64,000 bases of DNA from Dipteris shenzhenensis (Eukaryota). Position numbers and translations under genes: made by a program. The stretch lies in the NCBI GenBank assembly GCA_047967505.1, contig CM106538.1; one strand, 5' to 3'. Below the pieces are notes generated by a model. That model did not search any database, was not told where the DNA came from, and worked only from the letters and a program-made list of their open reading frames with translations. Of the stretch, positions 36,930-39,600 are shown one piece after another. Position 1 is the first letter of the stretch. Every line of letters begins with the position of its first letter.

Positions 36930-39600
36930 CTACCTCATCTTCATCACCCTCCCTAATCTGGGTTTCCTGTATGGGTTTCTCAATCCTTTCTCTTTCACAA
37001 CCTCCTTCTCCCATGTATCAACTAGCTCGCCTGCCTCCGTAAAGTCAGGTTTCAATATCTCAGGAGGTTGGGGTTCTCGTGATAAGGCTACCACTGAATT
37101 TACATCGGACTTTGCACCTTTCAAACCAAGCTCCTGATGCTCATTAGGTAAGTGATGAATAGCAATCACTCTCTTCTTTATGTAATCACATTGAATAGGA
37201 TCTTTTTCAACTGCAATTACATTTTGACCCTTTTTTAAGGCACACGTTGTGACTATGCTTGAACTAGCAAATAGATTGAGTACCCACTCATGCTCATTTG
37301 AAAACAGATTTATGAGCTGATTAAGTACCCACTCATGCTCATTTGAAAACAGATTTATGAGCTGATTAATTAGGAGTTGTGGTTTTTGATAAGGATTTAC
37401 TCTCCCCCCATTCTTATCCATGGTCACATGCCTGAGCTTCTTCGTCACAGCTGGAAAAATGAAATGATTAGGAGTAAATGGAGCAGATGAGGGAAAATTG
37501 ATTTGACCAATATTTTTTTTTCCATCCACAGACCAATACCCAACTGAAATGTTTTCTGTAGTAGATGTGAATCGATGTCCTTTCATTTGTCTCACATTGG
37601 GTTTCATCCTATGACATGCAATAAACATAAGTTTTAAATTAATCAAAAGAAAACACAATTATAACAATAATAATTGACCCAATATAATCTTTGCATTTCA
37701 TTGCTGCACTCACCAATAAAGGTGGTCATGTCTAGCACATTTATCACATCTGACACTCATCACTGCCCCAGATTGCAAGTCTGAATGAAAAATTATGACA
37801 CACCAAAGCATTGCCGACGTAATTGATATGAACTAATCAAGAAGACTCATTAGATCCTTTGCTTTGTAAGGGACCTCATCAAAGGTGGATCCGGGAATAT
37901 TAAATCCATATGGTACATCTGCAATGACTAATGTGTACTCATTCTTTGGAACTATCTTTGACAATTCATTGCAATCTCTGTTGAGCACATGATAAAAGTT
38001 TGGTGGATGGTTTTCCCCCCTACCAAACTCTAACATGTCATCACTAAGAGTGATATATTGTTGTCGAGTTCGACACTCTTTTTCTTTTGTAGCCCAGTCA
38101 ATCAATTGCTTAAAGCTTGTAGGCATCATACTACTCTTAGATCCCTTCTTGCCTCTTTTTTGAACGTTGTTGTCAAAATAACAGTTCAATATTTTAAACA
38201 TTCAAATCTACAATTTGAAAGAGAAATTCCATTAGAATATGTATACCAAATTTGACATACCATGCTTTTGAATACATTGAAATATGGAGCCAAGCTCTCC
38301 ATCCTGCTGCTCTCTAGATACTCCTCCCGAACAACATCCCAATCCAGCATGTTTAATTGCCGGATCATTGCTTCTTGCATTCTCATGTATATTTTATGCC
38401 TGCATTGAAAACACATGTAAAATTCTTCTCACTTTTACCATTGAAACAAAGTCTATTGAAATATTATTTGTAAAGAGGTTAATGTGAAATCAAGGAGAGA
38501 CATGATGCAAAAGAGAGAAGTTTACTTATCAAATTCATTGCCCATTTCATCCAAAGAGAGATCCCCAGACACCACTCTGCCAAGCACAGACTTAATTAGA
38601 ATCTCATCTTTAATTCCTTGCATGCTCTTCCATGCTGTGGCTCAAATTTCTTCAGGTAATGCCTTCAAGGTCTCGGTTTCTTTCTTGACTCCTTTAGGTA
38701 TGAGCTTTTTCTACCCTTTGATTTCAAAATTCTCCCACTTGGAAAAAATTGCATTTATCAAATCCCAAACTTCTCCACTACGAAATGCAATTTGAAACAT
38801 CCCGTCCCATGATCTAAAGCTGTCACTTGGCCTTGACAGATCTTTAATTATTGCGGAAATCCTAGTCTCATTCAACAAAGACAAGCGAAACTCTGGAGTG
38901 ATCAAAGAACGATCCTCGTTAAGTTTTGTAATAAACTCATTGTGATAGAAACAAACCAATTCTATCCAAGACATGGACTTCCTACACTCATTGTCATTAT
39001 GGTGATCAAAAGCCAATAAGTTTGCCTCCGAATCAGTCAAACCAGCATAAACTATACAATTACATGTCTTGTAATGAGAGTTGCTCGCGGAAACTCAATA
39101 TTCAACTGTCGTTTTGCCTCTCTTGAATGGGAGCCTCCAAGAACAAAGTAGTTATAATCATTTGCTTTCTGACAATCAAAAGATGCCTTGTCTAGACAAT
39201 CTTTTGGATCCACGAGCATAATGTAGTTCACAACTTGTGCATGTAGGTTGTCCTTCATTTGTGACTTCAAATTCTCAATATGGAAAGGATGTATTTTTCA
39301 CACCTCAAATGGCCAAAGGCTAGTCCTAGGATCAATAGGAGGTCTGATAACATGATCAATGTGCAAGAAGAAAGTGTGTCGATCCACAAGGTTATCTCAT
39401 TGTACCTTTTCTCGGACTCTATTTTGTTGTGTATTTGAGGTGCCATCTCCAATGTCAGCTCCTGGTACTTGCAGCTCACCACTGGTTGGGATTTCAATGA
39501 TATCTAATGGCTGTACTCTCCTTGGAGCCTTTGATCTCGGTTTACTCTGTTTTTTCCCTTATGCAATAGATGGAGTCTCCTCAACAACATCCTCATAAGA
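36930..39600 (-). pseudogene. ParB-like domain + beta-class N6-adenine/N4-cytosine DNA methyltransferase, spliced and decayed
   Basis: YFVLGGSHSREA (ParB-like GxHR); VLNRDC..LVIADVPYG (motif IV); NPYQKP..LINLFSNEHEWVLNLFASSS..IAVEKD (motifs X/I/II); introns ~38503-38401 and ~37711-37610; 5' boundary approximate. Confidence 0.8.

Follow-up and report, generated by a model that had tools for sequence, protein, structure and literature searches.

A decayed, intron-bearing amino-methyltransferase gene with a probable ParB-like part in Dipteris shenzhenensis

How does a gene of prokaryotic type, apparently coding for a DNA methyltransferase, come to carry spliceosomal introns in a 64,000-nucleotide stretch of Dipteris shenzhenensis DNA (contig CM106538.1 of GenBank assembly GCA_047967505.1; the whole stretch is referred to here as the window), and was it brought there by a transposon? 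A first-pass annotation, made from the letters alone, had placed at 36930-39600 a ParB-like segment joined to a beta-class amino-methyltransferase and had taken the gene for a dead piece of transposon cargo. Our analysis indicates that the locus is very probably a dead member, truncated at its 5' end and interrupted by introns, of a multi-copy eukaryotic family in which a ParB-like part is followed by a beta-class methyltransferase. The chances that this copy was transposon cargo are about even.

A dead gene copy with spliceosomal introns

The pseudogene was delimited by tblastn with two relatives (P0001 and P0078), which gave a homologous span of 36996-39486 on the minus strand, in keeping with the annotated limits (Table 1). 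All of the motifs that had been listed were found at their annotated places in stop-to-stop frames on that strand. Residues 123 to 637 of P0001 align to the window in three pieces (E values of 8e-63, 2e-40, and 1e-5), and residues 216 to 300 of P0078 carry the homology to 39486 (E, 9e-8). Residues 1 to 215 of P0078 had no match within 39.2 to 46 kb of the window (tblastn); the copy is therefore either 5' truncated or diverged past recognition there.

The reading frame is interrupted by five in-frame stops (39397-39399, 39298-39300, 38711-38713, 38642-38644, and 37833-37835, the last a TAG), and a sixth (38202-38204) counts only if the stretch that holds it is exonic. A 1-base frameshift lies at about 39085-39095, between the two halves of the ParB-like core, and a 45-bp in-frame duplication (37274-37363) amounts to an insertion just before motif I relative to P0001. 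The FxGxG core of motif I, met in relatives (see below), is not intact here: the window reads NLFASSS where P0001 reads DLFSGSGT in the tblastn alignment, and the annotation was thus right to regard this string as a decayed DxFxGxG. With at least five stops, a frameshift, a duplication, a destroyed S-adenosylmethionine (SAM)-binding motif, and no 5' part, the copy is dead, as had been proposed, and to judge by its sequence it is an inert pseudogene without function.

The spliceosomal introns were borne out by two that have clear GT-AG borders (38400-38525 and 37609-37713). The exons on either side of the first join as ...NEFDK/HKIYMRMQ..., matching P0080 (EEFTNHKVYMKIQ). The second splits a Trp codon (TG/G), and a relative on a metagenome contig (L001) has an intron at the same position and in the same phase (ATT TG/GTAAGA ... 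TTATAG/G TAC AAG). At a third, probable intron, the border on the 3' side is doubtful or has been damaged, because the in-frame TGA at 38202-38204 comes after its acceptor. Two other relatives (L002 and L003) contain an extra intron inside motif I that the window copy does without. Bacterial contamination was considered and was rejected because introns are present.

The surroundings and the nearest relatives are eukaryotic as well. The window is AT rich and holds two Copia elements, which surround the pseudogene locus, together with a PIF1-type helicase fragment and satellite arrays. Six relatives in the protein series, drawn from a eukaryote protein set, are named in the form Gb_NNNNN, which we take to denote gene models of Ginkgo biloba (a gymnosperm). 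The nearest Atlas clusters, found with language-model features, have 55 to 62 members and are 100% Eukaryota, with Streptophyta the commonest group.

Table 1. Features of the pseudogene in the window, in 5' to 3' order on the minus strand (slashes mark exon-intron borders)
Feature	Position	Strand	Remark
Whole span: ParB-like part, helical linker, beta-class methyltransferase	36996-39486	-	5' third of the gene absent
Segment before and at the start of the ParB-like core	39220-39486	-	tblastn alignment to P0078 216-300
ParB-like core	38942-39297	-	YFVLGGSHSREAKRQL then CIVYAGLTDSEANLLAFDHHNDNECR; frames -2 and -1 in tblastn
GGSHSR motif	39121-39138	-	ParB-like core
Helical linker with conserved W(R/K)xxQGI...SLxEM	38526-38941	-	alignment EIKG*KKL..., PEEI*ATAWKSMQGIKDE
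Intron, 126 nucleotides, phase 2	38400-38525	-	GAT AA/GTAAAC ... TGCAG/G CAT
Linker exon	38261-38399	-	HKIYMRMQEAMIRQLNMLDWDVVREEYLESSRMESLAPYFNVFKSM; aligns to P0045 300-343, P0080, P0019
Probable intron	38208-38260	-	donor GTATGT 38255-38260, acceptor TAG 38208-38210
Exon with catalytic half of methyltransferase and motif IV	37714-38201	-	LLD*FISITSAMLW in alignment
DVPYG, motif IV	37905-37919	-	catalytic half of methyltransferase
Intron, 105 nucleotides, phase 2, within Trp codon	37609-37713	-	TAT TG/GTGAGT ... CATAG/G ATG AAA
Last exon: target-recognition part, PYQKP, decayed motif I, IAVEKD, C-terminal tail	36996-37608	-	aligns to P0001 447-637
PYQKP motif	37380-37394	-	last exon; aligns with HPTQKP of M.RsrI via P0001
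45-bp tandem duplication, 2 copies, 98% alike	37274-37363	-	adds 15 residues (QLINLFSNEHEWVLN twice)
NLFASSS, decayed motif I	37257-37277	-	P0001 counterpart is DLFSGSGT
IAVEKD	37200-37217	-	last exon

Relatives and the class of methyltransferase

The C-terminal frame (242 amino acids [aa]) was searched with HMMER against 1.84 billion representative proteins, and 77 were matched at an E value of ≤0.001, 20 at ≤1e-10, and 1 at ≤1e-30. The best relative was P0001 (670 aa; E, 8.2e-36; 49% identity). In Pfam, the window frame scored 26.6 bits with N6_N4_Mtase over frame residues 81 to 162, just below the cut-off (26.7 bits), as is expected for a decayed copy; the homology searches removed the doubt left by this marginal score. 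The other seven window frames had nothing credible in Pfam. The profile search that the annotation had proposed was clear for the relatives, with 65.7 bits for P0001, 68.9 for P0078, 42.1 for P0058, and 48.1 for the L001 exon (N6_N4_Mtase, PF01555). The family qualifies as N6_N4_Mtase, and the window copy is a dead member of it.

Comparisons with characterized enzymes agreed with this assignment. The nearest solved structures to P0001 were M.RsrI (E, 2.3e-6), M.MboIIA, CcrM, and DpnA, whereas the N4-cytosine (N4C) enzymes N4CMT and M.PvuII gave E values of only 0.35 to 0.91. A family profile run against PDB had its best matches in 2zie, M.RsrI, and M.MboIIA (2e-8 to 1e-7), and all significant PDB matches were DNA methylases. 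DNA-methyltransferase families in PHROG matched at up to 1.5e-27. A total of 554 phage and 101 plasmid records matched in the methyltransferase part only, with identities of approximately 21 to 27% for the best matches that spanned the full domain. Seven of these phage and plasmid loci were opened, and all proved to be stand-alone methylases, some of them CcrM-like; ParB_N searches of the same seven records returned one ordinary ParB and no fusion of ParB with a methylase. Word-index searches of two exon frames against longer proteins had no match, and a scan of viral contigs with the family patterns gave 78 pattern matches and no relative. In a search of sequencing runs, a single DNA run contained 7% of the words, and no RNA run was listed.

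The order of the motifs places the enzyme in the beta class. In the window, DVPYG lies upstream of NLFASSS on the minus strand, and the same permuted order is found in P0001 (DIPHG at 378, DLFSGSGT at 541) and P0058 (DFPYG at 222, DAFSGSGT at 383). The succession of motif IV, PYQKP, and motif I is the permuted beta arrangement, and this definition is the one that is applied to N4CMT in the available text of Rodriguez et al. 2022 (PMC8885841). Among the 77 relatives, [DN]xP[YFWH]G was present in 16, P[YT]QKP in 26, and motif I in 23. All three patterns occurred in five, and setting aside P0070, whose motif IV is unaligned, leaves P0001, P0008, P0028, and P0058. These fractions are low because most hits are fragments or truncated gene models (median hit length, 157 aa; <200 aa in 47 of 77). 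The L001 relative, which carries DVPYG, PYQKP, and DFFAGTGT, is intact over the part available. These results uphold the annotated class, a beta-class N6_N4 amino-methyltransferase of prokaryote or phage type, through the PF01555, PDB, and PHROG matches. The outcomes that had been named as contrary did not appear: a methyltransferase profile matches, the nearest solved relatives are DNA methylases, and the catalytic motifs are kept in relatives.

Motif IV itself departs from the usual form. Seventeen occurrences were read: DAPYG (6), DFPYG (2), DIPYG (2), DLPYG (1), DVPYG (1), NAPYG (1), DIPHG (2, with Tyr also changed to His), DPPYG (1, canonical), and DWPHG (1, probably unaligned). In 13 of the 17, A, V, I, F, or L thus stands where (D/N/S)-P-P-(Y/F/W) has its first Pro; the Asp, the second Pro, and the Tyr are kept in the DxPYG forms. 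Because the first proline of DPPY is missing and a group of six gene models reads DIPHG, the intact members are no more than putatively active. Motif IV reads DIPHG in P0001 and P0019 and DISQG in P0079 (all from one source), and from these residues the intact-looking copies of the DIPHG/DISQG group may be catalytically altered. A further variation concerns P0028 (1,825 aa), in which two complete ParB-like plus methyltransferase units stand in tandem, separated by Ala/Pro-rich and Glu-rich low-complexity stretches; this layout hints that P0028 belongs to another lineage of the family, possibly an algal one.

The ParB-like part and the predicted working of intact members

We consider a ParB/Srx fold likely for the N-terminal part. 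An alignment of nine relatives contains a conserved block (VLVDP...Y.Y.VLGGxHSxEARxxLxxEFP...K...C.VYAGLTxxEAKxLAxDHNxDxExRxxMxFIQK..FHNEF) that, by eye, follows the canonical ParB N-terminal pattern (compared with Sinorhizobium ParB). The arginine-rich nucleotide-binding motif of the GERRxRA type is not kept, and the family reads (V/I)(L/I)GG(S/T/C/N/G)H(S/T/C)xEA(R/K) at the matching place, which is presumably nearer the GxxH(R/S) variants of the ParB superfamily. CTP-clamp behavior is not to be assumed. Foldseek, run with the domain model against 350,542 chains, placed ParB-family proteins in all of its top 11 rows, none of them significant (Spo0J 1vz0, Noc 7ol9, ParB 6sdk [ParB-CDP], PadC 6ryk, and KorB 8qa8/8qa9; E, 0.32 to 1.3; probability, ≤0.12; TM, 0.13 to 0.25). 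A weak match to DUF6551 (best E, 0.019) was shared by four of the 12 members, all four being near-identical proteins. In Atlas features, residues 125 to 345 of P0047 had nine ParB_N clusters at ≥0.9, by a measure that is uncalibrated for protein parts, and a whole-protein search listed phage clusters with ParB_N plus N6_N4_Mtase at 0.75 to 0.79.

Several tests weigh against the fold assignment. Pfam ParB_N was matched by none of 12 members at an E value of ≤10 and by none of eight proteins at ≤0.1, the PDB profile search contained no ParB at an E value of ≤10, and hhalign gave a probability of 0.3% for the family against one bacterial (Sinorhizobium) ParB. The shallowness of the family alignment (Neff, 2.1) gives these three tests little power. 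The AlphaFold models were poor (mean pLDDT of 44.1 for full-length P0078 and 50.9 for the domain model) because only 12 alignment rows were available, and VIA-align of the domain model had nothing above a Z score of 3.3 and no ParB. A fold search with the full-length P0078 model likewise had nothing above a Z score of 5.0, with KorB at 3.6 and 3.1, within noise. The annotated ParB-like label is thus favored by the motif pattern, Foldseek, the feature scores, and the weak DUF6551 match, which agree with each other, and it reached significance in none of the tests.

The same region of P0047 (residues 125 to 345) scored highest with fungal DUF3723 clusters (0.97, 0.96, and 0.94; 12 at ≥0.9), ahead of ParB_N. 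We understand DUF3723 to be a recurrent accessory gene of the fungal Starship giant transposons. Pfam DUF3723 had no match in any of the 12 members scanned, and the literature search found no paper that joins DUF3723 and ParB. If true, the resemblance would mean that ParB-like accessory modules link the giant transposons of fungi, algae, and plants.

In family members that are intact, an N-terminal ParB/Srx-like domain (signature VLGGxHS...VYAGLTxxEAxxLAxDHNxDxExR) is followed by a helical region of approximately 250 residues and then by a permuted beta-class N6_N4 amino-methyltransferase, in which D-[hydrophobic]-P-Y-G, PYQKP, and DxFxGSGT are found. The linker is helical by prediction in P0078, where it is the sole stretch with a pLDDT of approximately 60 to 90. 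By analogy with the families concerned, such proteins would bind SAM via FxGSG and PYQKP and would transfer its methyl group to the exocyclic amine of a flipped-out DNA base at D-x-P-Y. Their target would more likely be the N6 of adenine than the N4 of cytosine, given the Asp at the head of motif IV and the adenine specificity of the closest enzymes of known structure. The ParB-like and helical parts would bind DNA and may localize the enzyme; that the target is the carrier element itself is speculative.

Transposon carriage, its alternatives, and significance

ParB-like plus methyltransferase pairs have been met on eukaryotic transposons before. The available sections of Dinatale et al. 2025 (PMC12477816) describe a ParB-like plus N4C/N6-adenine (N6A) methyltransferase accessory gene in the 21.5-kb transposon Sola1-1_Ec32 of Ectocarpus, with comparable genes in algal transposons (brown, green, and red) and the proposal that their products bind and modify their own element. 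The Sola1-1_Ec32 protein resembles the present family in combining a prokaryote-type domain pair in one eukaryotic protein (a likeness of description), and its gene lies on the strand opposite to the transposase, as does the L002 relative with respect to the MULE frame described below. It differs in size and setting: it is a protein of 1,104 aa from a brown alga with a defined element, whereas the relatives found here are of approximately 670 to 760 aa, mostly streptophyte, and have no defined element. The cited part of the Petroll et al. 2025 preprint reports ParB-like and DNA-methylase modules as cargo in giant DNA transposons, namely the red-algal Plavaka accessory genes PAG2 (N6A methylase plus SET) and PAG3 (ParB-like plus 2OG oxygenase), as well as PAG homologues in Mutator elements of Chondrus; in PAG2 and PAG3, the ParB-like and methylase modules are in separate proteins with other partners, whereas the present family has both in one protein.

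Other known enzymes share parts of this organization. Phage and plasmid ParB_N plus N6_N4_Mtase fusions have the same domain order and form the nearest named Atlas clusters (0.75 to 0.79), which are leads only. These fusions are of approximately 370 to 490 aa and lack the long helical linker, unlike the family, which has introns and a linker of approximately 250 residues, and in which GGxHS replaces the arginine-rich motif of ParB and D-[hydrophobic]-P-Y-G replaces DPPY. M.RsrI, M.MboIIA, and CcrM carry DPPY; they share the motif order, (H/N)P(T/Y)QKP, and FxGSG with the family but are bacterial, consist of one domain, and lack both introns and a ParB-like part. N4CMT (bdelloid) and DN4MT1 (Marchantia) are, like the family, prokaryote-derived amino-methyltransferases in the form of intron-bearing eukaryotic genes. 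N4CMT is also a permuted N6_N4_Mtase, but it is fused to a chromodomain and matches P0001 at an E value of only 0.35 to 0.38; it is described as being without eukaryotic homologues in the available text of Rodriguez et al. 2022 (PMC8885841). DN4MT1 has TSPPY (Walker et al. 2021 preprint, cited section), whereas the Asp in motif IV of the family points to adenine. The word ParB occurs in neither of these two papers. Iyer et al. 2016 (PMC4738411) report, for chlorophytes and chytrids, a Dam-type clade with a fused ParB-HTH and, for haptophytes, methylases that derive from phage ParB-terminase loci.

We put at about even odds the reading that the window copy is what is left of an accessory (cargo) gene once carried by a large DNA transposon, and the evidence for it comes from outside the window. 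L002 contains a 641-aa MULE/FAR1-type transposase frame (1865-3790, minus strand; Pfam MULE, 89.5 bits) with a C-terminal CCHC knuckle, approximately 1 kb from the 3' end of a decayed relative (124-834, plus strand), so that the two lie tail to tail on opposite strands. The family is also multicopy and decayed: six gene models from one source share 58 to 100% identity over their shared parts and differ in exon content, three of the four loci examined (the window, L002, and L003) are decayed, and one gene model, P0061, continues into a fused Copia integrase. The part of the annotation that called the gene transposon-borne is supported indirectly by this decayed multicopy family, the L002 MULE, and the algal precedent; in the window itself, neither terminal repeats nor a nearby transposase was found. 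A comparison of the flanks for terminal repeats (20 to 36.9 kb versus 39.6 to 57.5 kb) found no bracketing inverted or direct repeats within 20 to 57.5 kb except GA-rich simple sequence; the window contains a single copy of the gene and no MULE-like frame, and the closest frame that resembles a transposase (DUF7869; 56175-56702, plus strand) lies 16 kb off, past a satellite array. The MULE adjacency is in turn limited to one contig of 5.8 kb, and plant DNA commonly contains MULEs. All of these points weigh against carriage. The L002 contig ends within the gene, so the ends of the element are not visible.

The same observations bear on the possibility that the locus is a pseudogene of an ordinary host family, acquired from a phage or bacterium long ago, domesticated in streptophytes, and spread by segmental duplication with no transposon involved, an account to which we give a substantial chance, although short of an even one. 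Long residence is indicated by the conserved position and phase of the intron, the window copy has no linked terminal repeats or transposase, and the nearest Atlas clusters (55 to 62 members) are eukaryote only. Against this history stand the many fragmentary, decayed copies, the six near-identical models from one source, the MULE transposase that adjoins one relative, and the published cases in which the ParB-like plus methyltransferase pair is transposon cargo. The introns do not decide between host gene and cargo, because introns are nothing unusual in the accessory genes of eukaryotic DNA transposons. The introns do, with their GT-AG borders, speak against a recent bacterial, phage, or giant-virus insertion or an assembly contaminant, which we regard as extremely improbable: the domain pair is typical of phages, and Atlas clusters with ParB_N plus N6_N4_Mtase are 86 to 90% viral, but the nearest relatives are eukaryotic (37 to 49% identity, versus approximately 25% for phage and plasmid records in the methyltransferase part only), the gene sits between plant-type Copia elements in AT-rich DNA, and no viral contig matched.

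What intact members modify is a separate matter. They could methylate RNA or protein, or could be inactive DNA-binding proteins, in view of a motif IV that reads D-[hydrophobic]-P-Y-G rather than DPPY, and DIPHG in one group. The PYG ending is also known from RNA guanine-N2 methylases, and P0028 matches UPF0020 weakly in the region of DFPYG (E, 5.8e-4; below the cut-off). Several eukaryotic acquisitions of such enzymes have moved to RNA, according to the cited part of Iyer et al. (PMC4738411). We nevertheless judge these functions unlikely, since the best profile is that of N6_N4_Mtase, a DNA methylase family, with scores above the cut-off, every significant PDB match is a DNA methylase, a ParB-like module that probably binds DNA is fused to the enzyme, and Pfam found no RNA-binding domain.

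The wider neighborhood of the pseudogene is rich in repeats. Tandem arrays flank it, with a 53-bp unit (approximately 6 to 8 copies; 40348-40788) and an 82-bp unit (2 copies; 40811-40974) upstream and an approximately 190-bp unit (2 copies; 36582-36956) over its 3' end. No palindromes of >6 bp, as candidate ParB sites, were found in these three arrays, which are unique in the window and not common to L001 to L003. The inverted-repeat tandem arrays beside PAG3 have no clear counterpart here, the upstream 53-bp array holding only 6-bp palindromes. A 27-bp repeat (2.4 copies; 39656-39720) just upstream of the span, without a match in any relative, translates in one minus-strand frame to a repeat of the GLSAP type. 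The satellite between the pseudogene and the DUF7869 gene (43500-48900) consists of units of approximately 560 to 890 bp and contains numerous internal inverted repeats as well as microsatellites rich in TA/CA. At 55811-56702 (plus strand), overlapping transposase-like frames (IIIDGMDQKKTNLPHFK; Pfam DUF7869, 43 bits) are cut downstream by a Copia element (57512-61341); the literature search found no paper on DUF7869. Elsewhere in the window, a 177-aa frame (31686-32216, minus strand; Pfam Histone, 73.1 bits, profile positions 38 to 122) looks, from its sequence, like a divergent H3-like domain with an unrelated tail, and a PIF1-like helicase fragment (13484-14062, plus strand; 30.9 bits) is possibly a Helitron remnant.

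Whether 6mA (N6-methyladenine) and 4mC (N4-methylcytosine) are real in plant DNA, and what writes them, is disputed. Few N6A methylases in land plants are reported in the cited part of Iyer et al. 2016 (PMC4738411), and no N4C methylase in fig in that of Rodriguez et al. 2022 (PMC8885841); the literature searched contained no report of a land-plant gene that joins a ParB-like part to an N6_N4 methyltransferase. Streptophyte, intron-bearing, phage-type amino-methyltransferases with intact motifs are a concrete candidate writer, and the value of the window copy is as a pointer to this family, which appears to be a land-plant member of the recently noticed eukaryotic, probably transposon-borne, ParB-like DNA methyltransferases. 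If the genes are transposon cargo, self-modifying accessory proteins of transposons would extend from algae to land plants. A bolder proposal, which we rate as rather doubtful, is that large-genome land plants still hold active, transposon-borne, ParB-guided DNA amino-methyltransferases, by which an element would have 6mA or 4mC placed on itself or in its vicinity. If this is true, active members would represent a self-marking system that came from bacteria or phages and is common to the giant transposons found in brown, green, and red algae, and through the DUF3723 resemblance might also link the giant elements of fungi.

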